A stretch of DNA of 51,543 bases. Origin: an uncultured bacterium (GTDB taxonomy: Bacteria; DYJV01). The stretch lies in assembly GCA_964543655.1 (NCBI GenBank), contig CAZIZE010000026.1:1-51543 (forward strand), in the 5' to 3' direction. The notes beneath the pieces were generated by a model that worked only from the letters and a program-made list of their open reading frames with translations, was not told where the DNA came from and did not search any database. The position numbers and the translations under genes are program-made. This document shows, in pieces, positions 14,473 to 49,307 of this stretch (position 1 is its first letter; every line of letters starts with the position of its first letter).

Positions 14473-14486
14473 TTTTGTATACAAAA
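14473..14486. promoter_or_regulatory. Palindromic operator TTTTGTATACAAAA upstream of the gntR pair
   Basis: Perfect 14-bp palindrome; on the minus strand its TATACA lies 17 bp from TTGTAA (14504-14499). Confidence 0.7.
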
Positions 14487-14586
14487 AACCAAAAAAAATT
14501 ACAAGATTTTTTTTATAAATATATTGTAAAATTTCTGATATTATACTATAAAACAATATTTAATTAAAGTATATGGGGTTTTAAAT

Positions 14587-15729
14587 ATGATTGCTCAAAA
14601 AGCAGCTGAAATATCACCATTTTATGCAATGGAAATTTTAGAAGAAGCTAATAAGCTTGAACAAGAGGGAATTGATATAATTCACCTTGAAATTGGAGAG
14701 CCTGATTTTGACACACCAGAACCAGTAAAAATAAGTGCAAAAAATGAGCTTGATATGGGCAATACTCATTATACACACAGCCTTGGAGTTAATGAATTAA
14801 GGGAAGAAATTGCCAAATTTTATAAAAATAGATACAATGTGAAAATTAAGATAGATAATATATTAGTTACAAATGGTACTTCACCATGTTTATTTCTTGC
14901 TTTTGCTGGATTGTTAGAAACAGGAGATGAGGTTTTACTTTCAAACCCATCTTATCCCTGTTATAAAAATATTATAAAATTTTTAGGTGGAAATTTAAAA
15001 TATGTTAATATCTATGAAGATGAAAATTTTCAGTTTCCTGTAGAAAAATTAAAAAAACTTATTTCAAAAAAAACAAAAGCAATTTTAATTAACTCTCCTG
15101 CCAATCCTACAGGCACTATTTTAGATAAAGAAAATTTAGAAGAAATAGCTTCACTTGGAAAATTAATAGTTTCTGATGAAATTTACCATGGATTAACATA
15201 TGAAGGAGAGGAGCATTCTATTCTTGAATTTACAGATAATGCAATAGTTTTAAATGGATTTTCAAAGCTTTATGCAATGACAGGATGGCGACTTGGTTAT
15301 ATAATATGTCCTGATTGGTTAATCAGGCCGTTACAGAAAATTCAGCAAAACTTTTTTATATCAGCAAATTCTTTTGTTCAAAAAGCTGGAATTGCTGCTC
15401 TTCGTGAGTGTAAAACCCATGTTGAAAGGATGAGGGAAATATATAATAAAAGGAGATTGTTGATAATTAGTAAACTAAAAGATATGGGGTTTACCATAAA
15501 ATCTCATCCAAATGGTGCTTTTTATGTATTTCTGAATGTTAAAAAATATACTGATAATTCACTTGAATTTGCTAAAAAAATTTTGCATAATGCTCATGTA
15601 GGAGTTACGCCAGGTATAGATTTTGGCTCCAATGGAGAAGGATTTATAAGATTTTCATATGCTAACTCAATAGATAATATTAATATAGCAATGGAGCGGT
15701 TGGAATCGTTTTTTGATAAGTTACAGTAA
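14587..15729 (+). CDS. PLP-dependent class I/II aminotransferase
   Basis: IGEPDF, NSPANPTG, SDEIY, FSKLYAMTGWRLG. Confidence 0.92.
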   Translation: MIAQKAAEISPFYAMEILEEANKLEQEGIDIIHLEIGEPDFDTPEPVKISAKNELDMGNTHYTHSLGVNELREEIAKFYKNRYNVKIKIDNILVTNGTSPCLFLAFAGLLETGDEVLLSNPSYPCYKNIIKFLGGNLKYVNIYEDENFQFPVEKLKKLISKKTKAILINSPANPTGTILDKENLEEIASLGKLIVSDEIYHGLTYEGEEHSILEFTDNAIVLNGFSKLYAMTGWRLGYIICPDWLIRPLQKIQQNFFISANSFVQKAGIAALRECKTHVERMREIYNKRRLLIISKLKDMGFTIKSHPNGAFYVFLNVKKYTDNSLEFAKKILHNAHVGVTPGIDFGSNGEGFIRFSYANSIDNINIAMERLESFFDKLQ

Positions 15730-16094
15730 TGTATTTGAAAATAGGCGATTATGTAATAATTATATTTTTTTTAACAGCTATTGTTTTTAGTTTTCAAAAA
15801 GTAAAGAAATTATCATTTGATTCTGTTGAAATAGTTACTCCATATAAAAAGATTGTTTTACCACTAGGTAAAAATAGGATAATTAAAATAAAGGGGAAGT
15901 TAGGATATATGACTGTTGAGATATACAATAAAATGGTGAGGGTAAAAGAATCAAATTGTCCTAATAAAATATGTGTTAAAACTGGATGGATTTCACATAA
16001 TGGTGAATATATTGCATGTGTTCCAAATGGGGTATTAATAAAATTAATTTATAGGAAAAAAGAGAATAAAAATGTTGATTTTATAACAAAATAG
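15729..16094 (+). CDS. NusG domain II-containing protein
   Basis: N-terminal [22 protein letters not shown]. Confidence 0.85.
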
Positions 16095-16107
16095 ATTGGA
16101 GATAAAG

Positions 16108-16410
16108 ATGTTTGGTATAGGATTTAATGAAGTTTTAATAATTTTAATATTAGCACTTATAATAATCGGACCTAAAAAGTTACCGGATATTGCAAAAGCT
16201 TTAGGTAAAGGCTATAGAGAATTTAGAAAAGCCTTTGATGAGGTTAAAGAAGAGATGGATTTGAACTTTGATGATGAAAAATCATACGAAGAAATTAGAA
16301 AAATAGGCACAACTGAGCCAAAAGATAGTAAAGAAGAAAAAGAAGATAAGGAGAAAAAGGAAAATATAAATGGAGAAAGAGAAACAGAGTCAGAATCAAG
16401 AAAATCCTGA
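16108..16410 (+). CDS. tatB: Twin-arginine translocase TatB (TatA/B family)
   Basis: MFGIGFNE...IGPKKLP; directly upstream of tatC; ATG 16108 after GGAG. Confidence 0.8.
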
Positions 16411-17158
16411 GCATTATAAAATGTCGTTCACTGAGCATCTTGAAGAGTTAAGAGCAAGGCTTGTAAAAGTTTTAATAGCTGTTGGTGTGGGGTTTATTAT
16501 TTCATATTTTTTTTCAAAACAGCTATTTTATTATCTAACATTACCTTTGTTGAATGTTTTACCAAAAAATAATACACTTATTTTTACAGCACTGCCAGAA
16601 GCTTTTTTTACATATTTGAAAATATCTTTTTTTGCAGGGATTTTTCTTGCATCACCTTATATTTTCTACCAAATATGGAAATTTATTTCTCCTGGATTAT
16701 ACCCTGAGGAAAAGAGATATGTTGTTCCTTTTGTGATAGTTTCATCTATTTTTTTTGTTGCAGGAGTAAGTTTTGGATATTTTGTTGTTTTTCCATTTGG
16801 ATTTAAATTTTTTATAAGCTTTCAAAATGATTATATTAAAGCTTTGCCAACTTTGAAGCAATACCTTGGTTTTTCAATGAAACTTCTTTTTGCTTTTGGA
16901 ATTATTTTTGAAATGCCAGTGATTATGTATTTTCTTGCAAAAATAAAAGTGGTTAATTCAAAATTATTAACAAAAAATAGAAAATATACTATATTGATAA
17001 TATTTGTAGTTGCTGCTATTTTGACACCGCCTGATGTTTTTACTCAAATTTTAATGGCATGTCCATTGATTGTGCTTTATGAAATAAGCATTCTTGTAGT
17101 TAAATATGTTGAAAAAAGAAGAAAGAGCAAAGAAAATTCTTTATCAAAAGTTGATTAG
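16370..17158 (+). CDS. tatC: Twin-arginine translocase TatC
   Basis: [26 protein letters not shown]. Confidence 0.95.
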
Positions 17159-17166
17159 GAGGTTTT

Positions 17167-18045
17167 ATGGGCTACGATTTTCCACCATATAGGCCACCAA
17201 GTGAGGCTTATAGCTGTTTGATTAGATTTACAAGAGGTTGTCCATGGAATAAATGTGAATTTTGTAAAATGTATAAAAAAATAAAATTTGAAATAAGAGA
17301 TATTGAAGAAATTGAGAAAGATATAGAAGAGGCTCCTAATATTTTTGGTAAAAATATAAGAACAGTTTTTATTGGGGATTCTGATTCTCTTATTATGAAA
17401 GTAGAAGACCTTGAATTTCTAATAAATAAAATATGTGAAGTATTTCCAGACCTTGAAAGGATTACAAGTTATGCAAGAATACGGACACTTAAAGCTAAAA
17501 AGCTGAATAATCTGAAAAGACTTTACAATGCTGGCTTAACAAGGGTTCATATTGGTCTTGAATCTGGAAGTGAAAATGTATTGAATTTAATTAGAAAAGG
17601 TTCCAAACCAAAAGATTTTATTGAAACAGCTCCTATAATCAGAGATTCAGGTATTGAATTTTGCTTTTATGTTCTATTAGGTATTGGTGGTGTGGAGTAT
17701 AGTGCAGAACATGCAGAGGAAACAGCACGAGTAATTAATGAAGCTAAACCAGATTTTGTACGATTTAGGACTATTATACCTCTGCCAGGAAGTGGAATAA
17801 AAGCTAAGTTTTCTTCAGGTGAATTAACATACTTATCAGATGCTGAAATAGTTAGAGAGCAGTATAATATTATTAAAAATATCAATGTGAATACTTATAT
17901 AGCCAATGATCATGTATCAAATTTAGTTGCAATAGAAGGATTTTTATTAGACAATAAAGAGAATTTTTTAAAAATTTTAGATGAGGCAATGAAGTTTTAT
18001 AGTGGCAGTAGAAGAAATTATGAAGAGTTAATTAATTACTTATAA
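17167..18045 (+). CDS. Radical SAM protein (YRPPSEA family)
   Basis: YRPPSEA, CPWNKCEFC cluster motif, GLESG. Confidence 0.85.
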   Translation: MGYDFPPYRPPSEAYSCLIRFTRGCPWNKCEFCKMYKKIKFEIRDIEEIEKDIEEAPNIFGKNIRTVFIGDSDSLIMKVEDLEFLINKICEVFPDLERITSYARIRTLKAKKLNNLKRLYNAGLTRVHIGLESGSENVLNLIRKGSKPKDFIETAPIIRDSGIEFCFYVLLGIGGVEYSAEHAEETARVINEAKPDFVRFRTIIPLPGSGIKAKFSSGELTYLSDAEIVREQYNIIKNINVNTYIANDHVSNLVAIEGFLLDNKENFLKILDEAMKFYSGSRRNYEELINYL

Positions 18046-18059
18046 ATATTGGAGAGAAA

Positions 18060-18275
18060 ATGAAGACTATTTCAAAAAAAGAGCTTGAAACACTTATTTC
18101 AAATATAGATAACGAGCCTGTTAAGGCGAAACTTCAGGAATTTTTAAATTATGATGAAGTAGATGTTAATGTTTTTTTTAAAAAAATTAAAGAGTTAGAA
18201 TTGGTTGACGATGTGGATTATAAATTGTTGTTACTTCTTGAAGAGTTTTATTTACGATTTAATGAAGATAATTAA
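18060..18275 (+). CDS. Hypothetical acidic protein
   Basis: RBS GGAG, fills the operon gap; no motif recognised. Confidence 0.6.
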   Translation: MKTISKKELETLISNIDNEPVKAKLQEFLNYDEVDVNVFFKKIKELELVDDVDYKLLLLLEEFYLRFNEDN

Positions 18276-19526: not shown

Positions 19527-19527
19527 A

Positions 19528-27189: not shown

Positions 27190-27255
27190 AAAAATCTCCT
27201 AAATTTTCTTTATAATTTTATAGATAATAGCTTTAATTAGAGAAAAAATCAACAA

Positions 27256-27384
27256 TGTATACTGTATACCTAAAATTGAATGCAATTATAATTGTATACA
27301 ATAATTTTATTATTTGGTAAAGTTTTTTATTGATAAAAGCATTAATTAATGATATATTAAAAAATCGTTGTTCTTTGTATACAA
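27256..27384 (+). promoter_or_regulatory. Oxidoreductase promoter (TTGATA-17-TATATT, extended -10) flanked by TTGTATACAA operators
   Basis: -35 at 27330-27335, -10 at 27353-27358; ATTGTATACAAT 27291-27302, TTGTATACAA 27375-27384, tandem TGTATAC x2 27256-27269. Confidence 0.72.
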
Positions 27385-27410: not shown

Positions 27411-30400
27411 ATGAAAAGAGAAATTGATTTTAACTATGAATTTAATGAAAGGTTTAATGGGAAGTATCTATTTAATATAGATAGCTTTCTTGAAAACTTG
27501 AAAAAAGAGATTGGCGATGAAAATTTTCAAAAAATGAAAAAAACAGAAGAATTTATTAATGATGGCAATGCTGCTGTTGTTAATGTTCTTAAAAGGTTGG
27601 TTACTGGTCTTGTAGGTTATCCAATTACACCATCAACACCTGTTGCAGAAGGTATGGCTAAAGCTTATTCTGATGGTACCATTAATGTTTTTGGAGAAAA
27701 AATGTTTTATTTTCAGCCAGAAAGTGAGCTTGGGGCAATGGCTTTTCTTGAAGGTGCGGCATGTCAGGGTGGTAGGTTTGCTGATAATACTTCATCTCAG
27801 GGATTAACCTATAAAATAAAAAATATGTTTTCAGTAGCTGGGAAAAGATTACCTGTTTTAATGACAGTCCAGACAAGGGAGGTGAACAAAGGAAGCCTAA
27901 GTATCCACAATAGCCACACAGATCTTTATGCAGCAAGGGGCACAGGCTGGATATTGTTAATGAGTTCCAACAATCAAGAAATGCACAATTTGATACCTCT
28001 CACCTTTAAAACAATTGAGCAGAGACAGATTATGCTTCCTGCAATAGTAGCTGGTGAAGGTTTTTTGAAAAGCCATAGTATTGAAAATATAAAGGTTTTA
28101 TCAGACGAATTTTTAAGGTACTTTGTTGGGCCACCTAACAGGTTATTTCAGCCTGATTTTGAGAATCCTGTTTTGATGGGTACTTTTACTGATATTAATG
28201 TTACCATGCCCACTCAGATAAAACAGGATATTGCTATTAGAAATGTTAAAAAATATTTTAAGGCCACTATGGCAATTATGAATGAAATTTTAGGAACCAA
28301 TCTTGATGTTGTTGAAAATTATAGAACCGAGGATGCTGAGTTTACCATAGTTATGATGGGCGCTGGTTCTGAGACAATGAAAGATGTGGTGGATTATTAC
28401 AGGGATAAAGGTGTTGCTGTTGGACTTGTTAGACCTGTGCTTTTTTATCCACCTTGTATTGAAGAGATTGCTTATGGTATTCAAAATAGCAAGGTTATTA
28501 CAGTAATAGAAAAGGTTGCAGAGGCAAATGAAAGGTATCTTTATAGAGATGTAAATGAAGCATGCAAAATTTTAAACAGTAATCCTAAAATATTATCTGG
28601 TATTTATGGACTTGGTAATCAAAACCTAAGTATTGATGATTGCTGTGGATTAATTGAAAATATGATTTCAGAAAAGAAACTTGATAAATTTTTTGTTGGA
28701 ATTACTGGAACCAACTGTATAGAGCCAGTTAGAAAAGATGATTTTATATCAAAAGAAGTTGGTATGACATTTATTGGAATTGGTGCTGAAGGTGTTAAAA
28801 CTTCTCAGGAAACTCTTGCAAAAATAATTGCAAAATCTGGAAAATATGTTCAAACAAGTGCCAAGTATGGGGCTTCAAGGAAAGGTGGCATGGTTGTTAT
28901 GAATGCAAGGGTTTCAGATGAACCTATTAGAAATTGCTCCAATCTAACAGAAGTTGAAATATTATCAATATTTAATGACAAATATTTTGTTGACAACTCT
29001 TTGTTACCATTTATCAAGTCATTAAAGCCAGGTGGCTACTTAATTATTAACACAGTAAAAACTTTTAAAGAGATTTTCAATACAACAACTGAAGAGATTC
29101 AAAATATTTTTAATGAGTTTAAATTTAACATAGTTTTACTTGATGCAACAACCCATGTGTTAAAAGTGTTAAAAAGAAATTTACCTGGTACTCCTATTCT
29201 TGGGGTGATAAATAAATTAACTAAAATTTTACCAGAAGATGAATTTATTTCAATTTTTGAAAAAGAGCTCAAATCAAAATTTAAAGAGAAAAAATCTCAC
29301 CTTGTAGCAAAAAACTTAACTCTGCTAAATATTCCTTTTGATATGATCAGTGCAAATATGGAGAAAGAACCTATAAAAAAAGAGAAAAAAGATGAAATTA
29401 TAATAAAAGAAAAGTCCAGAATTACCACAGAGCTTATATTTAAACTCCCAGATTATTCATATTCAGAGCAAGATGAATTAGCAACAGTTGATTTTCCGAA
29501 TTTATATAAAGAGAAATATTATGATAAGTTTGTTAATGATGTATTAAAACCATTTCAAAGAGGTGAAAGCATTAAATGGGAAAAGTTTTTAAATATAGTT
29601 CCTGCTGCAACTTCAAAATTTAATAATGCCAGTCTTATAGGCACGCATTTACCATTATTTAGAGCAGAAAAATGTATTAACTGCGGTTTGTGTATAACAA
29701 GTTGTCCTGATAGTGCTCTTAGGTTTACAATAATAGATGAGCAAGATTATTCTAATCTTTCAGAATCACATAAAAAATTATTTAAGGAGGTAAATGAAAA
29801 AAGACTTTTAGGAGTAAATGGTAAATTAAATGAAAAATATTATTTTAATATAAATGTTGTTGACAATTATTGTAAAGGTTGCGGTTTATGTGTGAAGTCT
29901 TGTAAATTTGATGCTCTTTACCTTGAAGATAAAAATAAAATAAACAGAGAAGAATCTTGTGTGCCTTCAACTGTTTTTGAACTTGATAAATCAGATGAAG
30001 TTTTCAAATTTATATCAAATAGCAAGATTTTGCAAAAAATAATGTTAAAATATTCAGGTCAGAAATTTCTGCCAGGTGGTCATTCTCTTTGTCCAGGTTG
30101 TGGCGAGGGAATTATAGAGAGTCTTGTTTTTACAGCCACTGAAATGGTAAGGCAATCTCCTGATATTATAGAGAACACTTACAGCTCAGTACCGCAATTA
30201 CTTAAACGTTTTCAAAGTGAAAGTGTAAAACATATGATTGAAAATGGTTTTTATGTTTACACTATTAATGCAACAGGATGTGCAGAAGTATCCTGTTTGT
30301 CAAACCCATTTAATGCCAGAATTTACAATGCCGGGCATTATGGTTTTGGTACGGCAAGTGCAGCTGCCCTTGGGGCAAGAGTATCTTTGTTTAGTGCATT

Positions 30401-31160
30401 TATTAATGAATATGTTGATAAACTTACTAAAGTTTTGGTTTTTGGTGGTGATGGTGCATTTTATGACATTGGTAATCAGGGATTAAATTTTGCTCTTGGT
30501 GAAAATCAGGATATTACATGGATAGTTTATAATAATGAAGCTTATATGAATACAGGTTTTCAAAAATCTGGTGCCAGTAGATTTGGTTCCAATAGAACAA
30601 CCTCACCTTATGGAATAGAAATTAAAGGAAAAGATGATTTTCATAGAGAACTTGTTTCCCAGGCAATGGCAATACCTAAAGTATATGTTGCAAGATTATC
30701 TCTCTCAAATCCTCTATACTGTTTAAAAATATTGAAAGAAGCTATTGCTTATGAAGGGCCGTCATTGGTTGAGTTTTTCTCACCATGTCCAACAGGACAG
30801 GGGCTTGCTACTGATGATCTTGCAATTGAAGTTTCAAAAATGATGGTTGAGTCAAGAGCCTGGCCAATTGTGGTTAGAAAACCTTATCACACTATAGATA
30901 TTACAGCTAATCCTGATTATGACAAGATTTATCCTGAGCCAAAGAAAATAAAAGATAAGATTATTAAACCTGCTACCTTTAAAGATATAGTAAATTTAAT
31001 GGCTCAGTTTGTTGGTGATGAAGAGACAATTAAAGAGATAGTTAAGAATAATGAAAAGCAGAATATTTACAGATGGAACTGGCTGCAATATCTTGCTGGA
31101 GTTACTGATAGGTTATTAACAGAAGATGAAATAGAGGAAATTATTGCAGATAGGGTGTAA
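27411..31160 (+). CDS. por: Single-chain 2-oxoacid (probably pyruvate):ferredoxin oxidoreductase, alpha-gamma-delta-beta fusion
   Basis: YPITP, SSQGL, CINCGLC...CP and CKGCGLC...C ferredoxin motifs, CPGCGE, NATGC, GGDG, YMNTG, SPCP. Confidence 0.88.
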   Translation: MKREIDFNYEFNERFNGKYLFNIDSFLENLKKEIGDENFQKMKKTEEFINDGNAAVVNVLKRLVTGLVGYPITPSTPVAEGMAKAYSDGTINVFGEKMFYFQPESELGAMAFLEGAACQGGRFADNTSSQGLTYKIKNMFSVAGKRLPVLMTVQTREVNKGSLSIHNSHTDLYAARGTGWILLMSSNNQEMHNLIPLTFKTIEQRQIMLPAIVAGEGFLKSHSIENIKVLSDEFLRYFVGPPNRLFQPDFENPVLMGTFTDINVTMPTQIKQDIAIRNVKKYFKATMAIMNEILGTNLDVVENYRTEDAEFTIVMMGAGSETMKDVVDYYRDKGVAVGLVRPVLFYPPCIEEIAYGIQNSKVITVIEKVAEANERYLYRDVNEACKILNSNPKILSGIYGLGNQNLSIDDCCGLIENMISEKKLDKFFVGITGTNCIEPVRKDDFISKEVGMTFIGIGAEGVKTSQETLAKIIAKSGKYVQTSAKYGASRKGGMVVMNARVSDEPIRNCSNLTEVEILSIFNDKYFVDNSLLPFIKSLKPGGYLIINTVKTFKEIFNTTTEEIQNIFNEFKFNIVLLDATTHVLKVLKRNLPGTPILGVINKLTKILPEDEFISIFEKELKSKFKEKKSHLVAKNLTLLNIPFDMISANMEKEPIKKEKKDEIIIKEKSRITTELIFKLPDYSYSEQDELATVDFPNLYKEKYYDKFVNDVLKPFQRGESIKWEKFLNIVPAATSKFNNASLIGTHLPLFRAEKCINCGLCITSCPDSALRFTIIDEQDYSNLSESHKKLFKEVNEKRLLGVNGKLNEKYYFNINVVDNYCKGCGLCVKSCKFDALYLEDKNKINREESCVPSTVFELDKSDEVFKFISNSKILQKIMLKYSGQKFLPGGHSLCPGCGEGIIESLVFTATEMVRQSPDIIENTYSSVPQLLKRFQSESVKHMIENGFYVYTINATGCAEVSCLSNPFNARIYNAGHYGFGTASAAALGARVSLFSAFINEYVDKLTKVLVFGGDGAFYDIGNQGLNFALGENQDITWIVYNNEAYMNTGFQKSGASRFGSNRTTSPYGIEIKGKDDFHRELVSQAMAIPKVYVARLSLSNPLYCLKILKEAIAYEGPSLVEFFSPCPTGQGLATDDLAIEVSKMMVESRAWPIVVRKPYHTIDITANPDYDKIYPEPKKIKDKIIKPATFKDIVNLMAQFVGDEETIKEIVKNNEKQNIYRWNWLQYLAGVTDRLLTEDEIEEIIADRV

Positions 31161-33387: not shown

Positions 33388-35901
33388 TTATTCAAGCAAA
33401 CCTTTTTCATATAAAAACTCTTGTAATTTTATCTCAATATGCTTAATATCAACTTTAATTTTTGAAATATTTGTATCCATTGCTTTTTGTGCAACTGCTG
33501 TTGCTACTTTAATTGGCACTCTTAAGTCAAGCCCATCAGGAATAATATGCTCCTCTGATAAATTTTCCATTGCAAGAGAAGCTATTGCCTCAGATGCTGC
33601 AATTTTCATTTCATCTGTGATTTTTTTAGCCCTAACATCAAGAGCACCTCTGAAAATTCCAGGAAAGGCAAGACAATTGTTAACCTGGTTAGGAAAGTCA
33701 GATCTTCCTGTGGCTATTATTCTTGCTCCACCAACTTTTGCTTCATCAGGCATAATTTCAGGGGTTGGATTTGCAAGTGCAAAAATAATGGCATCTTTGT
33801 TCATTCTTTTTACATCGTTTGATTTTAATAAATTACCTTTGGATAAACCAATAAACACATCAGCACCTTTTAAAACATCCTTAATATTTCCCTTTTCTTT
33901 AAATGGATTGGTTATCTCTGCCATTTTATTTTTAATTTCATTCATGCCAACTTCTCTTCCTGCATAGATGGCACCTTTTGTATCACACATAATAAGATTT
34001 TTAGCTCCTGCTTTTAAAATAAGCCTGGAAACAGCTGTGGCACCTGCACCTGCTCCATTAACAACTATTTTAATATTTTCAATTTTTTTATTAACTATTT
34101 TAAGGGCATTTTTAAGAGCAGCAAGAACAATTACTGCGGTTCCATGTTGATCATCATGGAATACAGGAATATCCAGAGCTTTTTTTAATTCTTCTTCTAC
34201 GTAAAAGCATCGGGGAGCAGAAATATCTTCTAAATTAATCCCACCAAAATTTACAGAAATGCTTTTAACTATTTCAATTATCTTATCTGGCTCCTGAGTG
34301 GATAAGCATATTGGAAAAGCTTCTACACCACCAAAGGTTTTAAAAAGAAGGGCTTTACCCTCCATTACAGGCATTGCCGCTTCAGCACCAATATTGCCAA
34401 GCCCAAGAACTGCTGAACCATCTGAAACAACAGCCACAAGATTACTTTTGCATGTAAAATCGTAAATAGCATCTTTTTTCCCATAAATTAATTTGCAAGG
34501 TTCAGAAGCATGCTTGGGAGAATAAACAACATTAAAGAGGAATCTATCTTTAATTGGAACTTTATTTTTTATTTCAATTACACCAGTATGTTTTTTGTGC
34601 AACAGTATTGATTCTTCATAAACCCTTTTTTTATCATCAAATTTTATATGTATTTTAGTAGAAAGCTCATCTTCATAAAAACCCTCATATAGTAGATTTA
34701 AAAGTCTTAAAGTTATTTTTTCTGGATTAATATCTATTTTATTAATTTTGCATTTTATAGCTTCTTTTGCAACAGCTCCAGCAATGTTAGGTGCAACTCT
34801 AAAATCAAAAAGGTCAGGTAAAATATTGGTCTCATTCAAATTATCTTTTACCATATTGGCAAGTGCTTTAGCAGCAGCTATTTTAAGATTAGGATTTATC
34901 TGAGTTGCTCCTACATCAAGAACACCTCTTACAAATCCAGGAATTACAATTGCTGAGGTGAAATAGTTGGGATATTCAAATGAGCTTGTAGCAACTACTT
35001 TTGCTCCTGCTCTTTTGGCTTCAAGATAATTTATCTCTGGTTCTGGAGATGAAAGTGCGAATATAATGGGATTTTTATTCATCAATTTTATCATATCAGG
35101 AGTGAAAATATTCCCAACAGAAACTCCTATGAAAACATCAGCATCTTTAAGAGCATCTGTTAAATTCCCTTTTAAGTTTTTTTGATTAACATATTTAGCT
35201 ATTTCACTTTTTGCCCAATTCATATGAAAAGGTCTGTTTTTATAAATAATACCTTTGCTATCGCAAATAATTACATTTTTAAGCTCATAATTGGTTAGTA
35301 GTTTAGCTATGCCTATGCCAGCTGCTCCTGCTCCATTAATCACAACTTTTACATTTTTATTTTTCCCCACAACTTTAAGAGCATTAATTAAAGCAGCAAG
35401 AACAACCATGGCAGTTGCATGTTGGTCACCGTGAATAACAGGAACAGAGAGGGAACGTCTTAACATATTTTCAATTGCAAAGCATTTTGGAGAAGCTATA
35501 TCCTCAAGGTAAAATCCACCAAAAGTTGGCTCAAGATTTCTCACAGATTCTATAATGTATTCTTCGTCATAAGAATCTATTGCTATAGGAAGGGCATCTA
35601 TATTTGCAAAAGTTTTAAAAAATACAGAGTAGCCTTCAAGCATTGGCACTGAAGCAAATGGCCCTACATTGCCAAGACCATATACAGAGCTTCCATCAGA
35701 TATTATACCAATGGTATTCCCACGACAGGTAAGGTGAAAAGATTTTACAATGTCATCTTTTATTTCTTCACAACACGCAGCAACACCAGGGGTGTAAACA
35801 AGACTTAAAATTGATGCATCCCTAATATCAAGTTTGCTTTTTATGCCAATAAGTCCTTTGAATTTTTTTCTAATATCCACTGAGGTTTTTTTGAATTCCA
35901 T
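33388..35901 (-). CDS. NAD(P)-dependent malic enzyme, tandem duplication of two small-type units
   Basis: Two sets of Y.P, DGS...LGN.G, LEDI, H.DQH.TA and GAGA.. motifs (about aa 1-405 and 425-837). Confidence 0.9.
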   Translation of the reverse strand: MEFKKTSVDIRKKFKGLIGIKSKLDIRDASILSLVYTPGVAACCEEIKDDIVKSFHLTCRGNTIGIISDGSSVYGLGNVGPFASVPMLEGYSVFFKTFANIDALPIAIDSYDEEYIIESVRNLEPTFGGFYLEDIASPKCFAIENMLRRSLSVPVIHGDQHATAMVVLAALINALKVVGKNKNVKVVINGAGAAGIGIAKLLTNYELKNVIICDSKGIIYKNRPFHMNWAKSEIAKYVNQKNLKGNLTDALKDADVFIGVSVGNIFTPDMIKLMNKNPIIFALSSPEPEINYLEAKRAGAKVVATSSFEYPNYFTSAIVIPGFVRGVLDVGATQINPNLKIAAAKALANMVKDNLNETNILPDLFDFRVAPNIAGAVAKEAIKCKINKIDINPEKITLRLLNLLYEGFYEDELSTKIHIKFDDKKRVYEESILLHKKHTGVIEIKNKVPIKDRFLFNVVYSPKHASEPCKLIYGKKDAIYDFTCKSNLVAVVSDGSAVLGLGNIGAEAAMPVMEGKALLFKTFGGVEAFPICLSTQEPDKIIEIVKSISVNFGGINLEDISAPRCFYVEEELKKALDIPVFHDDQHGTAVIVLAALKNALKIVNKKIENIKIVVNGAGAGATAVSRLILKAGAKNLIMCDTKGAIYAGREVGMNEIKNKMAEITNPFKEKGNIKDVLKGADVFIGLSKGNLLKSNDVKRMNKDAIIFALANPTPEIMPDEAKVGGARIIATGRSDFPNQVNNCLAFPGIFRGALDVRAKKITDEMKIAASEAIASLAMENLSEEHIIPDGLDLRVPIKVATAVAQKAMDTNISKIKVDIKHIEIKLQEFLYEKGLLE

Positions 35902-36010
35902 TTTTTACTCCTGTTTTTTTATTAAAAAATATAAGATTTTTGCACAATGTTTTTAATTATTGCTAAAATTTTTTAAATATTAATAAGTTATGTGTTATAC
36001 AATATTCTAC

Positions 36011-36146
36011 TTGAAATGGCATTTACAATATCCTTAAGTTGTTATTAAATATCTTTCAACGTTGAACAATGAACTTGTATTATGTTAGTGGCTACGCTTT
36101 TTGAGAATGACCTTAAAAAGTCATTCTAAACAAAGCGAAGAATTCC
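36011..36146. repeat. Dispersed repeat copy plus REP-like inverted repeat AGAATGAC/GTCATTCT
   Basis: TTCAACGTTGAA 36055-36066 shared with 59-70; hairpin about 36104-36127. Confidence 0.6.
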
Positions 36147-36168
36147 TTATATCTACTATTTTTAAAAT

Positions 36169-36197
36169 ATTGTATACAATTTTAAGATAAAAGTAAA
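36169..36197 (-). promoter_or_regulatory. Malic enzyme promoter candidate TTTACT-17-TACAAT with overlapping ATTGTATACAAT operator
   Basis: Palindrome 36169-36180; -35 at 36197-36192, -10 at 36174-36169. Confidence 0.62.
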
Positions 36198-36234: not shown

Positions 36235-38052
36235 TTATAAGAAATTGTTTTGAATATATTCTAAATCAAACGGAATAATTCCACTTTTTTTTAATTTAAT
36301 TAAAACGTTTCTATCACATTCAACATCATCAGGCCAAACCCTTTTGAAATTGTCAAATTGATTTTTGTTTGTAGCATCAATAAATATTCTGTTATTTTTA
36401 AATATAATATCTCTTTTTGCATCTATATTATTTACAACTCTCCATAAAATCATATAAAGGTTATTTATATTATTTTTTTCATCATCAAGGACAACTACAA
36501 TTTTAATATGTTTTAAAATTGGATATAGTTTTTTGAAAAAATTTTTTATATTGTAACTTTTTTTAATTTTCACAATAGTTATAGGGTTTTTCGTATTAAT
36601 AAAGTATTGCTTTAATGAGGTTACATTATTTTCAATATTTTTAAAAATTTTAAAAAGCTCATCATCAGGTAATCTATCAATGTTTTCATTAACCACTTCT
36701 TTGCCAGTACAATCAATCCCAAGTTTGCCACCAAACGCAAAGTTATCTGAGCTGTGGTCAAGAGCATCTAAAATGCCACTTGTGATTAAAATATTCTCAA
36801 CTGTAACTCTGTTTAAAATATATTTTGTTATTTCTTTATAATTTGTTAGCTCTGGAGCATCTTCATTAACAAATATTGCGTGCTTTATAAAACTCATCTG
36901 TCCAATTCCCCAGAATGCATGCATTATTTGCTGGGCATGTGCTGGATAAAGGGTGCGAATTTTGGCAATTATAAGATTATGGAAAACTCCATTTTCAGGC
37001 ATATGATAATCTATTAAATCAGGAGTTGTAGTTTTCAACAATGGTAGAAAAATCTTTTCAGTAGCATAACCCATAAATTTATCTTCTACAGGTGGTTTGC
37101 CAACCACAGTAGCATGATAAATAGGATTTTTTCTACTTGTAATTGCAGTGATTGTTAGATAAGGATACTTCTCTTCTAAAGTATAATAACCAGTGTGGTC
37201 TCCAAATGGGCCCTCTACTTTAAATTTATCAGGTTCAACAAAGCCTTCAATAACAAAATCAACATCTTCTGGTATATAGATATTATTGGTAATGGACTTA
37301 ACGAGCTTTGCTCTTTTTCCTTTTATAAAACCATATAGTAGTAATTCAAAAATTCCGTGAGGTAAAGGAGCTTGAGCACACCAGATATAAAGAGGATCTC
37401 CACCAATAGCTATTGATACAGGCATTTTCTTTTTTGCTTTTATATATTCTTGAAAAATATGGTTGCTATCTTTATGTATTTGCCAGTGCATGCCAAGAGT
37501 ATTGTCATTGTATACCTGCAATCTGTACATACCAAGATTGTTAATTTTTCCATCAAGACTTTGGGTATACACCTGTCCCATTGTAATAAATGGTCCTCCA
37601 TCTTTAGGCCAACAGGTTAATATAGGTAAATCTTTTAAATTTGCACTATCACCCAATTTAATTATTTCTTGACATTTTCCCTCTGTTTTTAATCTTTTAG
37701 GGAAAATGGACTTTAATGATAAAAGATTTTTTAAGATTGTTAACCTATCAGAAAAGGATGAAGGAGGTTTTATTTTAAGAAGATTTTCTATTTTTTGAGC
37801 AATTTGTTCTACATTTCCTATAAAGATTTCTAATGACTTATAATTGCAGAAGATATTCATTAAAACAGGAATAGAAAATTTTCTGTTATTTTTTTTATCA
37901 ACAGGATGAGTAAATAGTAAGGCTTTTGAATTATCACTCTTTATTTCAAGGTAAGCTATATGTGGTATTTCAAGGTTAATATCTAATTCATTATCTATAA
38001 TTTTTAACAAATTTTCTTTTTTTAAAATTTTTATTAATTTTTCTGAGTCCAT
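36235..38052 (-). CDS. ubiD: UbiD family menaquinone-biosynthesis decarboxylase (long form)
   Basis: WPKDGGPFIT, NLGMYRLQ, EGPFGDHTGYY, GKPPVED, DALDHS. Confidence 0.88.
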   Translation of the reverse strand: MDSEKLIKILKKENLLKIIDNELDINLEIPHIAYLEIKSDNSKALLFTHPVDKKNNRKFSIPVLMNIFCNYKSLEIFIGNVEQIAQKIENLLKIKPPSSFSDRLTILKNLLSLKSIFPKRLKTEGKCQEIIKLGDSANLKDLPILTCWPKDGGPFITMGQVYTQSLDGKINNLGMYRLQVYNDNTLGMHWQIHKDSNHIFQEYIKAKKKMPVSIAIGGDPLYIWCAQAPLPHGIFELLLYGFIKGKRAKLVKSITNNIYIPEDVDFVIEGFVEPDKFKVEGPFGDHTGYYTLEEKYPYLTITAITSRKNPIYHATVVGKPPVEDKFMGYATEKIFLPLLKTTTPDLIDYHMPENGVFHNLIIAKIRTLYPAHAQQIMHAFWGIGQMSFIKHAIFVNEDAPELTNYKEITKYILNRVTVENILITSGILDALDHSSDNFAFGGKLGIDCTGKEVVNENIDRLPDDELFKIFKNIENNVTSLKQYFINTKNPITIVKIKKSYNIKNFFKKLYPILKHIKIVVVLDDEKNNINNLYMILWRVVNNIDAKRDIIFKNNRIFIDATNKNQFDNFKRVWPDDVECDRNVLIKLKKSGIIPFDLEYIQNNFL

Positions 38053-45680: not shown

Positions 45681-45714
45681 ATCTTTAAAAATTCAGATAT
45701 AGGTTAATTTTTTT

Positions 45715-46434
45715 ATGATTCCATTAAAAGATACCATTCCACATAGGCATACACCTTTTATAACATATCTGCTGATTATTGTTAATGTTTTGATTTTTTT
45801 TTATGAGTTATCACTTCCTCCTCATTCATTAAATATATTATTGTATACTTTTGGGCTTGTCCCGGCGAGGTATTCTCATCCTCAATGGGCAACATTTTTG
45901 GGGTTGCATTTTGATAATTATTGGCCATTTTTTACCTGTATGTTTTTGCATGGTGGGTGGTTTCATATTATCAGTAATATGTGGTGTTTGTGGTTGTTTG
46001 GAGATAATGTAGAGGATAAGTTTGGCCATTTTGGTTTTTTAATTTTCTATATTATTTGTGGACTTATTGCAAGTTTTACTCACTACTATTTTAATTCTAA
46101 TTCAACAGTTCCAGTAATTGGAGCATCAGGGGCAATTGCTGGTGTAATGGGAGCATATTTTGTAATGTTTCCACGGTCACGTATCCTTACACTTATACCT
46201 ATATTTTTTCTACCATTTTTTATAGAAATACCTGCTGTAATTTTTTTAGGATTCTGGTTTTTATCACAGCTTTTTTCAGGTACTTATATGCTTTTTGCTT
46301 CTTCTCATGTAGCAAGTATTGCATGGTGGGCACATATTGGTGGTTTTGTTGCAGGTATGATTTTGCAAAAGTTGTTTAAAAATGAGCATAGAGATTATTT
46401 CGCTGATGAATATTATTATTACAATTTTCATTAA
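45715..46434 (+). CDS. Rhomboid intramembrane serine protease
   Basis: MIPLKD, FLHGGWFHIISNM, GASG, AHIGG. Confidence 0.92.
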   Translation: MIPLKDTIPHRHTPFITYLLIIVNVLIFFYELSLPPHSLNILLYTFGLVPARYSHPQWATFLGLHFDNYWPFFTCMFLHGGWFHIISNMWCLWLFGDNVEDKFGHFGFLIFYIICGLIASFTHYYFNSNSTVPVIGASGAIAGVMGAYFVMFPRSRILTLIPIFFLPFFIEIPAVIFLGFWFLSQLFSGTYMLFASSHVASIAWWAHIGGFVAGMILQKLFKNEHRDYFADEYYYYNFH

Positions 46435-46523
46435 TAAATTCATTTGACAATTTTTGTTTTTATATGTACATTGAGAAAGATAATGAAATGTTATAATTTT
46501 AAAAAGTTTTGAAGGAGGCATAA

Positions 46524-47351
46524 ATGAATGGTGGAGGATATGGATATGAAATGTTCTGGTTTTTTCTAATGATTATTGCCCTTCAGCCTGTAATTAAGCA
46601 GAGGATGATAGAATCATCAAGACAGAGATTAATAGCAAAAATAGAGAAAAAAAGAGGCTCAAGATTAATATTGCTTGTTCATAGACAAGAGACAATGAGT
46701 TTTTTAGGATTTCCATTTTATAAATATATTAACATTCAAGATTCAGAGGAAGTTTTGAGAGCTATTCAACTTACAGATGATGACGTGCCTATTGATTTAG
46801 TTTTACATACTCCAGGTGGTCTTGTTCTTGCATCTTTACAGATTGCACGTGCTTTAAAGAAGCATAAAGGTAAGGTTACAGTTTTTGTTCCTCATTATGC
46901 AATGAGTGGAGGTACTCTAATATCACTTGCTGCAGATGAGATTGTTATGAGTGAAAATGCAGTTCTTGGTCCAGTTGATCCCCAGCTTGGTGAATATCCA
47001 GCAGCGTCCTTAATTAAATTAAAGGATATAAAATCAATTGATAAGATAGATGATAAAACTTTAATTTTGTCTGATGTAGCAGAAAAGGCTATAAAACAGG
47101 TAGAAAAAGCTGTTTATGAACTTTTAGAGGGTAATTATGATAATGAAAAAGCCAAAGAGCTTTCCAAGCTTTTATCTACTGGTAAATGGACTCATGATTA
47201 TCCAATTACTTTTGATGAAGCTAAAGCACTTGGCTTTAAAGTTTCTGATAAAATGCCAGTTGAGATTATGCAGCTTATGAGTCTTTATCCTCAACCTGTT
47301 AGAAGGATGCCATCTGTTGAATATTTACCTATACCAAAGCATAAATCTTAG
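46524..47351 (+). CDS. SDH-family Clp-fold serine protease
   Basis: N-terminal TM, HTPGG, AMSGGT, GPVDPQ, WTHDYPI. Confidence 0.88.
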   Translation: MNGGGYGYEMFWFFLMIIALQPVIKQRMIESSRQRLIAKIEKKRGSRLILLVHRQETMSFLGFPFYKYINIQDSEEVLRAIQLTDDDVPIDLVLHTPGGLVLASLQIARALKKHKGKVTVFVPHYAMSGGTLISLAADEIVMSENAVLGPVDPQLGEYPAASLIKLKDIKSIDKIDDKTLILSDVAEKAIKQVEKAVYELLEGNYDNEKAKELSKLLSTGKWTHDYPITFDEAKALGFKVSDKMPVEIMQLMSLYPQPVRRMPSVEYLPIPKHKS

Positions 47352-48259
47352 AAAAATATTTTCATCCCAACCATAATAGATGGCAGTGACAAAGAAAGTG
47401 CTTTGGAAAGCTCAACATGAGCTGCAAAGCCGCAATATTTGCAATTAATTGTGCCTCGGTTTTTTATATAACAACCATGATTTATTGTACCATTTGGTTC
47501 TGCATTTATAAGCCCTTCAGGTTTACACTTCCAGGTATTATGTTTTAAGTTGTCAAGAGTAGAATATGAGTTTAATATTTTGTATCCATTTCTTTTCAAC
47601 TCTTTAAGTTTATTTAAGATTTTGATCCTTTTTTCCAATGGTAAGAAAAATTTAAAGTTATTCTCATAAGGATAATAAAATTGTATTGTAAAGCCATCTA
47701 CAAGGTTGTTCAATAATATTATTAACAGAGGTATTTCTCTGTAATTTTCAGTTGAAATGCATATATTTGCAAAGATTTTAGGTTTATTTCTAAAAAAACT
47801 TGAAAATTTTTTAAATTCTTTTAAATTGTTAACAACAGTTTTAAAGATACCTTTTCCTCTAATTTTGTCATGAGTTTTTTCAAGTCCATCAATGCTAACC
47901 CATATAGCATCAGCGTCAAAATCAAATCCATTAATGCCATTTGTTGTGAAATTTACACTTAAAAATTTTCTTTTAGCATATTTTAGAATATCATTAAAAG
48001 TATATTTTCCATCATTCCAAGAAGTTGGTTCACCACCTTCAAAAATAATTAGCTTTGCTCCACTACTACTCAATTGATTTAAAACTCTTTTTATTTCAGA
48101 AAATTTTGGGTTTTTATGGTTATTTATTTTCCAGAAGGGACAATGTTTACATTTAAGGTTACAATTATACGTAATTTTATAACCAGCAAGGAGAGGAGTT
48201 TTTTTTATATTAAAATTTATATAACTTAAAAATAATTTGGGAATGAATACTATTTTCAT
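47348..48259 (-). CDS. Radical SAM protein with C-terminal Cys cluster (HpnH/DUF3463-like)
   Basis: CNLKCKHC, GGEP, TNG, SIDG, C...GC...CKYCG. Confidence 0.8.
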   Translation of the reverse strand: MKIVFIPKLFLSYINFNIKKTPLLAGYKITYNCNLKCKHCPFWKINNHKNPKFSEIKRVLNQLSSSGAKLIIFEGGEPTSWNDGKYTFNDILKYAKRKFLSVNFTTNGINGFDFDADAIWVSIDGLEKTHDKIRGKGIFKTVVNNLKEFKKFSSFFRNKPKIFANICISTENYREIPLLIILLNNLVDGFTIQFYYPYENNFKFFLPLEKRIKILNKLKELKRNGYKILNSYSTLDNLKHNTWKCKPEGLINAEPNGTINHGCYIKNRGTINCKYCGFAAHVELSKALSLSLPSIMVGMKIFF

Positions 48260-48474
48260 TTAATCTCTGCTTAAAATATGTTCAATTTGAAAAAAATTAA
48301 AAGATATATACTTAAAAAAGATATTACTCACAGGTGAATTAACAGGTTATTAACAGTTTTTGTGAAATATCTATGAAAGTTGTTAAAATTAAAAGCAAAA
48401 ACATAACATATTGTAATTACAATATAAATCTCATTCAATAAAAATAATGATGCTGAAAAATTCACAGTTTTTAC

Positions 48475-49236
48475 CTAATTTTTACATTTTTCCCAATATT
48501 TGTCCATTTCCTCAAGATTGCTATTATAAATATCAATATTTTTTTCTATAAAATTGAATCGTTTTATAAATTTGTAATTGGTTTTTCTAAGAGCTTCCTC
48601 TGGATTTATTTTTAAAAATCTACAGAGATTAACTAACATAAAGAATAGATCTCCAATTTCTTCCTCAATGTTTTTCAAGTTGTTTTCTATTAATGCTTCT
48701 TCAAGCTCAGAAAATTCTTCATTTAGCTTTTCCAATATATTTGCAAGATTTGGCCAGTCAAACCCCACCTTTGCAGCTTTTTTGGTAAGCTTATAAGCTT
48801 TTGAAAGTTCAGGAAGGTGCTTTGGAACTCCATCAAGAATAGACCTGTTTTCCTTACCTTTTTCTAATTTTTTTATTTGTTCCCAATTTTTATTAATAAT
48901 ATCAATATCATCTGTTTTCAAATTACCAAACACATGGGGATGTCTTCTAATAATTTTTTCAATTATTTCTTTAAAAACATCTTCCTGTTTAAATAGATTA
49001 TCTTCTTCAGCTATAATTATTTGAAATAAAATATGAAGTAGAACATCTCCTAATTCTTCTTTGATTTTTTCAGAAGAGTTCTCATATATAGCATCAACTA
49101 ATTCATAAACCTCTTCTATAAATTGAGGAATTAGTGATTGAGAGGTTTGTGCTTTATCCCATGGGCAACCATCTGGTGCTCTTAATTTTTTTAAAATATT
49201 TTTTAATTCATTAAAATTGTAATTGTTTTTATCCAT
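48475..49236 (-). CDS. mazG: Nucleoside triphosphate pyrophosphohydrolase MazG
   Basis: GCPWD, EELGD, RRHPHVF, AAKVGFDW, EIGD. Confidence 0.95.
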   Translation of the reverse strand: MDKNNYNFNELKNILKKLRAPDGCPWDKAQTSQSLIPQFIEEVYELVDAIYENSSEKIKEELGDVLLHILFQIIIAEEDNLFKQEDVFKEIIEKIIRRHPHVFGNLKTDDIDIINKNWEQIKKLEKGKENRSILDGVPKHLPELSKAYKLTKKAAKVGFDWPNLANILEKLNEEFSELEEALIENNLKNIEEEIGDLFFMLVNLCRFLKINPEEALRKTNYKFIKRFNFIEKNIDIYNSNLEEMDKYWEKCKN

Positions 49237-49277
49237 AATTGCTCTTTATAGGAAAATAAAAATATTTTCAAGAATTA

Positions 49278-49307
49278 TTGACTAATATTGTTAAATATTG
49301 TATACAA
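49278..49307 (+). promoter_or_regulatory. sucCD promoter TTGACT-17-TATACA with overlapping TTGTATACAA operator
   Basis: -35 at 49278-49283; palindrome 49298-49307 covers the -10 position. Confidence 0.7.

Follow-up and report, generated by a model that had tools for sequence, protein, structure and literature searches.

A candidate GntR-type regulon of anaerobic central carbon metabolism, marked by one 10-bp palindrome, in an uncultured vent bacterium

Global regulators of the pyruvate/2-oxoglutarate/C4-dicarboxylate node are known in a few model aerobes (PdhR, AkgR, CcpC and ArcA), and the boxes of the PdhR type have the form TGGT..ACCA. To our knowledge, such regulators are hardly known in strict anaerobes with ferredoxin-dependent 2-oxoacid oxidoreductases, and we know of none for uncultured phyla. 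Here we describe a candidate regulon of this kind in the genome of an uncultured vent bacterium, starting from a stretch of 51,543 nucleotides (nt) that makes up contig C26 and is called the window throughout. The regulon is marked by the palindrome TTGTATACAA, and the window carries, together with five perfect copies of this word, a tandem pair of GntR-family genes, gntR-A and gntR-B, whose products (GntR-A and GntR-B) are the candidate binders. We regard it as very likely that the sites form a real transcription-factor regulon, and we think it probable, from sequence comparison, that GntR-A and/or GntR-B binds TTGTATACAA and represses the genes behind it.

Several described systems resemble this one. 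Atu1419 of Agrobacterium fabrum, a VanR-type FCD GntR repressor (PDB 6z74), was crystallised on the 10-mer ATGTATACAT; in the complex, the G at position 3 is recognised by Arg45. Operators of Atu1419 overlap with -10 boxes, and a tetramer of the protein brings two of them, 109-190 bp apart, together in a loop (PMC7797058). Atu1419, Bacillus subtilis GntR, UxuR and DipR represent a GTA-TAC class of GntR/FadR operators (PMC11472048), and the B. subtilis GntR operator, as quoted there, is ATACTTGTATACAAGTAT. For the FadR subfamily the operator consensus Ny-GT-M-N0-1-K-AC-Ny has been given (PMC4494728). PmiR of Pseudomonas aeruginosa (PDB 7xp0) senses a tricarboxylate, 2-methylisocitrate, with a Zn-FCD domain (PMC9728974). 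Finally, HgtR of Geobacter, a protein of 62 amino acids (aa) predicted to be of the ribbon-helix-helix type, footprints TTGTATACAGTATACTAA at +11 to +23 of gltA, with TTGTATACA being half of that gltA site, and HgtR-like sites precede acnB, icd, oorD, ato, frdC, atpG, nuoA, sfrB and a gntR-family gene (PMC2817479).

The genome studied here (G000) comprises 2,261,978 bp in 102 contigs, with 29.7% G+C and 94% completeness. Its phylum is represented in the collection by six genomes, the relatives being G001 (same genus), G002 and G003 (same family) and G004 and G005 (a second family). Open reading frames (ORFs) were mapped by a crude greedy pick of the longest ones, and non-coding DNA was defined as that outside ORFs of at least 100 aa plus the first 45 nt of each ORF. 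The reversed TTGTATACAA served as the control word for copy counts. All 43 perfect copies in the relatives were fetched, and their neighbouring genes were mapped onto G000 by BLASTP. The genes of the window that matter most are given below; the identities assigned to them in the original prediction agree with their Pfam matches.

13777..14448, minus strand: gntR-A, gene of the proposed repressor (Pfam GntR 1.7e-18, FCD 7.3e-22)
13108..13773, minus strand: gntR-B, its tandem paralogue, 28% identity to gntR-A (Pfam GntR 9.8e-17, FCD 1.3e-9)
27411..31160, plus strand: por, single-chain pyruvate:ferredoxin oxidoreductase (Pfam POR_N, POR, PFOR_II, TPP_enzyme_C, Fer4)
33388..35901, minus strand: duplicated (tandem-fused) malic enzyme (Pfam malic and Malic_M, two stretches of each)
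49345..51402, plus strand: sucC and sucD, succinyl-CoA synthetase (CoA, coenzyme A; Pfam ATP-grasp_2, Ligase_CoA, CoA_binding)

In the window TTGTATACAA occurs at 14475, 27292, 27375, 36170 and 49298. Dinucleotide shuffles of the window predict 0.16 copies, and a count of five was not reached in any of 100 shuffles. A search for the 8-mer core TGTATACA leads to the same five places. None of these copies lies inside an ORF of at least 100 aa, nor inside one of at least 60 aa, and our exact scan confirms the positions of the five copies, as direct reading does those of two further TGTATAC words; all of these had been reported as intergenic. Genome-wide there are 13 perfect copies. This total is modest, since the control word occurs nine times in G000, and the signal therefore lies in the location of the copies rather than in their number. 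Twelve copies fall within the 268 kb of non-coding DNA, against 0.86 expected under an order-3 Markov model, and a single one within the 1.99 Mb of coding DNA, against 4.69 expected under the same model. Among all 1024 palindromic 10-mers the word ranks second in non-coding enrichment, the first being TCAACGTTGA, the core of a dispersed repeat. A set of 160 palindromes of identical base composition averaged 1.16 non-coding and 6.9 coding copies, and at this background fraction the probability of finding at least 12 of 13 copies in non-coding DNA is about 1e-9. Thus, the genome-wide scan proposed earlier reveals intergenic enrichment, and a random distribution was not seen.

The 13 copies were also checked strictly, one by one. 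Eight lie in no ORF of at least 60 aa, three lie 12-25 nt inside over-extended start calls (each with a ribosome-binding site after the motif), one lies in an 82-aa ORF without a family match, and one lies within the final 13 nt of iorB, at a distance of 114 nt from dctP downstream. Flanking sequences were compared for 55 sites of the six genomes; they show a mild A/T preference only and are otherwise unlike; since they share nothing beyond this preference, TTGTATACAA is not part of a larger repeat. In the position weight matrix built from the perfect sites, the core is without variation and the flanks are weak.

The eight perfect copies outside the window were placed with NCBIfam and Pfam:

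upstream of an operon for a TAXI-TRAP transporter and an acyl-CoA ligase
upstream of an HdrD/TfrB-like membrane iron-sulfur oxidoreductase and a family-III CoA-transferase
upstream of the operon of an aldehyde:ferredoxin oxidoreductase
upstream of korDAB, the genes of 2-oxoglutarate:ferredoxin oxidoreductase
between an ADP-forming acetyl-CoA synthetase and a BKACE-USP-TAXI-TRAP row
upstream of dctPQM
between a Desulfovibrio-type porin and rplM
upstream of an oadA/pycB/transcarboxylase-5S-like gene

Sites with one mismatch and the GTATAC core kept are found in G000 at the following places:

before an AMP-forming acetyl-CoA synthetase
before methylmalonyl-CoA carboxyltransferase with methylmalonyl-CoA mutase
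before dctQM
before a four-subunit 2-oxoacid oxidoreductase (porG)
before class-I fumarase
in the divergon of an acyl-CoA ligase and an ApbA-enoyl-CoA hydratase

The set looks like one of pyruvate and 2-oxoglutarate oxidoreductases, a C4 branch, succinate-propionate enzymes, acetate activation or formation, and uptake systems. The extra members that had been anticipated were met in part: fumarase has its site (one mismatch in G000, perfect in G002 and G005), and so do three TRAP transporters of the dicarboxylate type, while the frdA-like operon on contig C93 carries none. No convincing site was seen at the second FAD_binding_2 gene (contig C42) or at the aconitase-family genes. Because the citrate-synthase family PF00285 has no match in the 94% complete assembly, the regulon looks like a branched organic-acid network and not like a full cycle, and the gene content suggests that the organism probably lacks a closed tricarboxylic acid (TCA) cycle. 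The only aconitase-family genes in G000 adjoin an HMGL-like (isopropylmalate/homocitrate-type) gene. Two near-sites on contig C85 and one perfect site in G001 (L014) were removed from the regulon list, as the former lie inside a 391-aa ORF and the latter is likewise genic; the apparent 1-kb gene-less gap of C85 with these near-sites matched no Rfam family.

The word and its positions are conserved in the phylum. Perfect copies number 13 in G001, 8 in G002, 11 in G003, 5 in G004 and 6 in G005, against two to six for the control word. Of the 13 sites of G000, ten have a perfect counterpart at the same genes of G001 (both por sites, gntR-A, sucC, malic enzyme, korD, porin/rplM, TAXI-TRAP, acetyl-CoA synthetase/BKACE and iorB/dctP); those of por, sucC and gntR-A are perfect also in G002 and G003, and that of korD in G003. 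The gntR-A operator is present in 6/6 genomes of the phylum, four times perfect and twice with one mismatch, the latter being TGGTATACAA, about 40 nt before gntR-A in G004 and G005. These two genomes also carry the one-mismatch TTGTATACCA before korD, and G005 a one-mismatch copy 30 nt before sucC. Moreover, genes with a one-mismatch site in G000 have a perfect one in relatives: besides fumarase, this holds for acetyl-CoA synthetase in G003 and G004, the carboxyltransferase in G002, porG in G005 and dctQ in G003. Across genomes whose proteins are 50-90% identical, the dyad symmetry of the full 10 bp is kept at every position, and the adjoining spacer bases vary. Phylogenetic footprinting, which the original prediction had suggested, thus finds the motif kept upstream of the gntR-A, sucC, korD, por and malic-enzyme orthologues. 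The conservation evidence has its limits: the query used detected no single-chain por in G004 or G005, korA was not found in G002, and the 760 bp fetched of the G002 malic-enzyme spacer contain no site with a GTATAC core. In G004, sucC is cut by the contig end.

The promoter regions of por (operators O1 to O3), sucCD and gntR-A are organised as follows, the operators being given without strand:

27255..27269 (words 27256-27262 and 27263-27269): por O3, tandem imperfect site TGTATAC-TGTATAC (GTATAC-N1-GTATAC), read directly
27292..27301: por O2, perfect operator, about 64-73 nt upstream of the inferred transcription start, invariant in G000-G003
27330..27358, plus strand: por core promoter, TTGATA, 17 nt, TATATT with TG before it; best promoter-like match, 10/12
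27375..27384: por O1, perfect copy at about +10 to +20, following the -10 by 17 nt and preceding the por ATG by 26 nt
49278..49283, plus strand: -35 hexamer of sucCD, TTGACT, with TTGAC invariant in five genomes
49298..49307: sucCD operator, separated by 14 nt from the -35 and by 37 nt from the sucC ATG, with TATACA (49301-49306) at the -10 position
14499..14504, minus strand: -35-like hexamer of gntR-A, TTGTAA, 14 nt upstream of the operator
14475..14484: gntR-A operator (candidate autoregulation), 26 nt before the gntR-A start, positions 4-9 reading TATACA (14481-14476, minus strand)

When the por regions of G000-G003 were aligned (proteins 70-84% identical), invariance was limited to five blocks, namely O3, O2, the -35, the -10 and O1. 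O3 is kept as TTGTATAC-T/A-GTATAC in G001 and G002, and two full palindromes stand there in G003. The promoter columns TTG..A and TG..AT are invariant in the four genomes, as is the context of O1, TTGTATACAA(T/A)AAACA, and O1 and O2 are 83, 82, 83 and 84 bp apart in G000 to G003, equal to eight helical turns. At sucC the operator starts 14 nt after the -35 in 4/5 genomes (the gap is 12 nt in G005), and it is perfect in G001-G003 and has one mismatch in G005. At gntR-A, an invariant TTG of the hexamer, an ungapped 14 nt and the operator recur in 7/7 aligned sequences, which include that of G015, a genome from a second phylum. If the usual 17-nt spacer is assumed after the conserved -35, the -10 of gntR-A and sucC coincides with operator positions 4-9 (TATACA). 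At korD and at the pycB-like gene, 16-17 nt separate the end of the operator from the ATG. This layout, with the operator on the -10 at gntR-A and sucC and past the -10 at por, indicates repression. The overlaps with -10 boxes that had been proposed for these sites hold by conservation at gntR-A (7/7) and sucC (4/5), and por O1 lies 17 nt past its -10; the promoter scan bears them out only partly.

What could bind such a site? GntR-A and GntR-B both score above the cut-offs of PF00392, the GntR winged helix-turn-helix at the N-terminus, and PF07729, the all-helical FCD effector domain at the C-terminus (24.3 bits for FCD), and the two genes stand in tandem in all six genomes of the phylum, each time with an operator before gntR-A. 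The solved relatives closest to GntR-A are PmiR (7xp0, E 2.9e-21), TM0439 and Atu1419 (6z74, E 2.5e-11). In an ungapped alignment of GntR-A residues 21-75 with residues 17-71 of the Atu1419 chain, the DNA contacts Glu34, Arg45, Thr46 and Arg49 of Atu1419 correspond to E38, R49, T50 and R53, and these four are invariant in GntR-A, GntR-B and all their orthologues; the predicted recognition helices suggest that both proteins can read the same operator. The word written as TT-GT-A-T-AC-AA fits the FadR-subfamily consensus of PMC4494728, and the operators of Atu1419 (PMC7797058) and B. subtilis GntR (PMC11472048) lend weight to the link between GntR proteins and this type of motif that had been drawn earlier. 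From these data we infer that the binder is GntR-A and/or GntR-B and that the sign of regulation is negative. The earlier idea of one repressor system over unlinked carbon loci is supported by the distribution and conservation of the sites, with the binder being a predicted one. Among the NCBIfam equivalogs PdhR, LldR, GlcC, CsiR, NanR, FadR, PhnR and PRK11414, GntR-A stays below every cut-off, the best being phnR_burk with 97.8 against 271.5 bits. A profile search of contigs with GntR-A alone gave no match, and with the alignment it gave three loci, all from relatives in the set.

The effector domain of GntR-A was compared with that of PmiR:

PmiR D143 (Zn ligand): H138 in GntR-A, H in the G015 homologue, F in GntR-B
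PmiR H147 (Zn ligand): H142 in GntR-A, H in the G015 homologue, N in GntR-B
PmiR H192 (Zn ligand): H185 in GntR-A, H in the G015 homologue, Q in GntR-B
PmiR H214 (Zn ligand): N207 in GntR-A, N in the G015 homologue, Y in GntR-B
PmiR R95 (carboxylate partner): K90 in GntR-A, K in GntR-B

In this alignment GntR-A has three His and an Asn at the candidate metal positions, a pattern shifted relative to the usual Asp/Asn plus three His, and in GntR-B the set is lost (F, N, Q, Y). We infer that GntR-A senses a carboxylate via a bound metal, and that GntR-B would sense something else or nothing.

These observations lead to the following model. GntR-A (13777-14448), possibly with GntR-B (13108-13773), would be a FadR-subfamily (FCD) repressor with TTGTATACAA as its operator, its dimer reading the 10-bp palindrome via the conserved Arg-Thr-x-x-Arg recognition helix. 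At gntR-A and sucCD, a protein bound on the -10 position would exclude RNA polymerase. At por, O1, just past the transcription start, would act as a roadblock, and O2 and O3, located 83 and about 115 bp upstream in helical phase, may reinforce it through a DNA loop. Binding of a small carboxylate-type metabolite at the FCD metal site of GntR-A would release the protein and turn the genes on. The predicted regulon would comprise about 20 operons: por, kor, sucCD, malic enzyme, fumarase, the transcarboxylase 5S/pycB-like subunit and methylmalonyl-CoA carboxyltransferase with the mutase; the AMP- and ADP-forming acetyl-CoA synthetases, the aldehyde:ferredoxin oxidoreductase operon and the HdrD/TfrB-like oxidoreductase with its CoA-transferase; and three TRAP transporters, the porin and the regulator pair itself.

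Some observations weigh against this model. Five of the 43 perfect copies in the relatives lie deep within genes, and two further ones at 3' ends. The crude ORF caller skipped at least one real gene, that of the 391-aa ORF mentioned above (C85:57522-58697, overlapping its neighbour by 95 nt). The TATACA taken as the -10 lacks the usual final T, and the consensus scan called no promoter using it at gntR-A or sucCD. The DNA is AT-rich, and its shuffles contain promoter-like matches in about equal number; the promoter claims therefore rest on cross-genome conservation. Among the sequencing runs listed for the locus there was none of RNA. In G000 the insertion of a repeat separates the malic-enzyme operator from its gene. 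The remaining points concern the binder. HgtR, which is not a GntR protein, footprints a near-identical sequence before Geobacter TCA genes, oorDABC and a gntR gene (PMC2817479). An HgtR-like tandem, GTATAC-N1-GTATAC, is present at por O3 in G000-G002, and one also precedes the malic-enzyme gene of G003. Moreover, another FCD GntR of G000, encoded on contig C30, has an SRTP(I/V)REA helix (SRTPVREA) and could read GTATAC-type sites.

These last points are the basis of the strongest alternative, in which the sites are real operators, the binder is an HgtR-like small ribbon-helix-helix protein or the C30 GntR, and the gntR pair is only a target. Since the gntR gene of Geobacter is a target of the HgtR type, a site before a gntR gene is not proof of autoregulation, and the C30 GntR has the same recognition helix, its gene being the last of a row that begins with two copies of ATGTATACA(T/C). 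However, most sites are single 10-bp palindromes invariant at ten positions, which is the unit of a GntR dimer as seen in the Atu1419 crystal and not a tandem array; all 13 perfect sites of G000 are single palindromes, and the tandem form of the HgtR type was not seen among them. The C30 row also has a variant of its own, with AT...AT and not TT...AA at the ends. Relative to its promoter, the gntR-A operator is placed identically in seven of seven sequences from two phyla, and in Geobacter the gltA promoter was likewise bound by GSU3370, a protein with a GntR-type DNA-binding domain (PMC2817479). No match to Pfam RHH_1 (PF01402) at E <= 0.1 was found in G000, G001 and G002, which is weak evidence, as HgtR is reportedly without known family and 397 small ORFs were outside the scan. 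A literature search on Geobacter HgtR returned no re-examination of the binder among the matches listed. Altogether, we judge this alternative unlikely.

A second alternative is that GntR-A or GntR-B binds and mainly activates or acts dually, like AkgR at sucCDAB/sdh or FadR at fabA. AkgR, a GntR-family protein, activates sucCDAB and sdh (PMC4323418), some sites here lie 93-114 nt before start codons (those of the HdrD-like gene and dctP), and por O2 and O3 are upstream of the -35. An activator, on the other hand, is not easily reconciled with an operator on the -10 position at gntR-A and sucCD, with a por copy past the start site, or with the korD and pycB operators and their 16-17 nt to the ATG, and the GntRs with GTATAC boxes (Atu1419, DipR and others) are described as negative regulators (PMC11472048). 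We therefore hold a mainly activating or dual role to be quite improbable. That the word is bound by no protein, and is a by-product of promoter composition (TATAC-type -10 boxes in AT-rich spacers), a mobile repeat or restriction-site avoidance, we consider highly improbable: TTGTATACAA does contain the -10-like hexamers TATACA and TACAAT, GTATAC is scarce in coding DNA and the end of the TCAACGTTGA repeat resembles a half-site, but the full dyad is invariant across genomes amid varying spacer bases, the copies stand in several registers relative to promoters (on the -10, past the start site, far upstream), their flanks are unrelated and their target genes are functionally coherent. As to the hexamer itself, G000 has 115 coding copies of GTATAC against 209 expected (order-3 Markov) and 39 non-coding ones against 28.7; its scarcity in coding DNA could be due to restriction-site avoidance.

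G000 encodes four clear FadR-type GntRs, GntR-A, GntR-B and one each on contigs C78 and C30. The third (locus C78:2255-4784), an LldR/NanR-like FCD GntR with a recognition helix unlike that of GntR-A (SRASIREA), is encoded divergently from an acyl-CoA ligase and has its own TGGTCAGACCA box in the spacer; the equivalent spacer of G001 also carries a perfect GTTATTGTATACAATAAC, and the C78-type GntR and the TTGTATACAA regulator may overlap there. On contig C30, the two ATGTATACA(T/C) palindromes (C30:773 and C30:929, 156 bp apart) head a row with a family-III CoA-transferase, a branched-chain-type ABC transporter, an acyl-CoA dehydrogenase and the FCD GntR (C30:6856-7512), which is probably a separate local regulator with an Atu1419-type flank variant.

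The malic-enzyme site deserves separate mention:

36170..36179: malic-enzyme operator, perfect copy, 268 nt from the start codon and 55 nt after the ubiD stop
35975..36150 (approximate bounds; core 36056-36065): copy of the TCAACGTTGA repeat, with alignable flanks, between the operator and the malic-enzyme start

G001 has this operator, with identical immediate flanks, 40 nt before the orthologous ATG, and the upstream neighbour there is a different one. The extra 230 nt or so of the G000 spacer are a copy of the TCAACGTTGA family, an insert absent from G001; since G001 keeps the operator close and lacks the insert, the site in G000 is an ancestral operator pushed away by insertion. A minus-strand promoter-like match ends within it, and the operator may no longer be active in G000. 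In G003, a tandem TTGTATACTGTATACAT lies 19-26 nt before the malic-enzyme orthologue. TCAACGTTGA itself is the core of a dispersed intergenic repeat like a miniature inverted-repeat transposable element (MITE), with 19 non-coding and no coding copies against 0.14 expected and with alignable flanks of about 100 nt. Copies occur in the window at 36056-36065 and 60-69 and elsewhere, for instance, at C9:37605, C9:87009 and C96:20879, and a related piece is found in the por leader of G001. We had considered that TTGTATACAA might be a mobile repeat of this MITE-like kind and rejected this, its flanks not being alignable over the 55 sites, unlike those of the TCAACGTTGA family.

The surroundings of the regulator pair are as follows:

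8866-14448, minus strand: gntR-A and gntR-B; then, downstream and joined to them by ends that overlap or abut, a U32 peptidase-family gene, an MscS channel, a phasin-like ORF and an ABC1/UbiB-like kinase
36235-38052: UbiD-family gene
14587-15729: class I/II aminotransferase, divergent from gntR-A and 102 nt from its operator, an arrangement seen in G000 and G001 only

The regulator operon may be tied to quinone biosynthesis through the UbiB-like kinase and the UbiD gene. The aminotransferase is a doubtful member of the regulon, because the neighbour at this place differs in G002 and G003.

Outside the phylum, G015 is a 46%-GC genome of another small phylum (13 genomes), with 11 perfect copies of the word against two of the control word. 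Its GntR-A homologue is 42% identical, carries the H/H/H/N ligand set and shows the same arrangement of -35, 14 nt and operator (TTGTATACAT). The data from G015 give independent support to GntR-A as the candidate binder. The G015 sites, often extended to TATATTGTATACAATATA, precede citrate synthase, aconitase, a PPDK-like gene, an MFS transporter, TauE and a thiolase operon, and one is found at a dsrAB-like pair divergent from a ROK-GntR-GntR row. The AT-rich genome G014 was considered and set aside: it is not enriched (10 copies against 8 of the control word), and its best GntR match is 28% identical. A bolder reading can be offered tentatively and is, in our opinion, rather doubtful: the tandem pair would be a two-input master switch of anaerobic central carbon metabolism, older than the phylum, in which GntR-A and GntR-B occupy the same operators as mixed or competing oligomers and loop por; the same clade would act on the TCA genes of G015, and the HgtR sites of Geobacter would in part be operators of the orthologous GSU3370, with HgtR layered on later.

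What results from this work is a compact and testable in silico regulon, in which about 20 operons are connected by one 10-bp word with a candidate regulator pair. It defines a set of genes which the organism treats as one metabolic unit, and it provides a promoter architecture for a lineage without experimental genetics. The cross-phylum link to G015, and perhaps to Geobacter, suggests that GntRs with GTATAC boxes recurrently control central carbon flow. Moreover, protein and operator make a pair small enough to be tested by gene synthesis, without culture.

A literature search for a GntR regulon with this membership found none described among the matches listed, the nearest functional analogues being AkgR and the HgtR regulon; a search with the literal 10-mer returned cloning-vector, primer or unrelated texts, with none on GntR regulation among the matches listed. 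The original prediction had stated that no regulon with this membership was known. This stands for GntR regulons in the listed literature and has to be qualified for Geobacter, where the HgtR regulon has very similar sites and targets (PMC2817479).

The likeness to HgtR lies in GTATAC-based dyads at or just past promoters, in the repression of central carbon and energy genes, including 2-oxoglutarate:ferredoxin oxidoreductase, in a gntR target and in the position of the gltA site (+11 to +23), which resembles that of por O1. The two systems differ in that the HgtR binder is a non-GntR protein of 62 aa, its site is a tandem GTATAC-N1-GTATAC, and its members include gltA, acnB, icd, nuo and atp. 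With PdhR of Escherichia coli and AkgR of Rhodobacter sphaeroides, the present system shares a GntR-family link of TCA and pyruvate-node genes to a metabolite signal, AkgR acting directly on sucCDAB (PMC4323418). AkgR, however, activates via GTGATCAC-N13-GTGATCAC and is described with about two functional targets (PMC4323418), and GntR-A scores 36.8 bits against an NCBIfam cut-off of 330 for PdhR.

PmiR is the closest solved relative by sequence (E 2.9e-21), and its ligand positions align with H138, H142, H185, N207 and K90 of GntR-A; R184 of PmiR falls in an alignment gap and has no counterpart. The DNA that PmiR recognises is reportedly very different, and its regulon covers the methylcitrate cycle and quorum sensing (PMC9728974). 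The 10-mer itself is part of the operator of B. subtilis GntR, ATACTTGTATACAAGTAT, and this protein, UxuR and DipR are FadR-subfamily repressors released by a carboxylate; they differ in being described with one local catabolic operon each. Atu1419 shares with GntR-A the domain pair, a 10-bp palindromic operator with an identical 8-bp core TGTATACA, the overlap with the -10 and the conserved contact residues, and its two operators at 109-190 bp, bridged by the tetramer, are comparable with por O1 and O2 at 82-84 bp. It differs in the outer operator bases (AT..AT against TT..AA here). Moreover, Atu1419 is described as a local regulator of hydroxycinnamate degradation and not of central carbon genome-wide, its effector is N5,N10-methylenetetrahydrofolate, and it has no tandem partner in the form of a paralogue devoid of the metal site. 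By family and mechanism, the predicted binder would thus be a GntR repressor of the ordinary FadR type, with an operator of the GTATAC-box class. The novelty lies in how large the regulon is and what it contains (about 20 operons forming an anaerobic organic-acid core with por, kor and sucCD), in its conservation throughout the phylum, in the tandem sensor pair, and in its echo in a second phylum and possibly in Geobacter.

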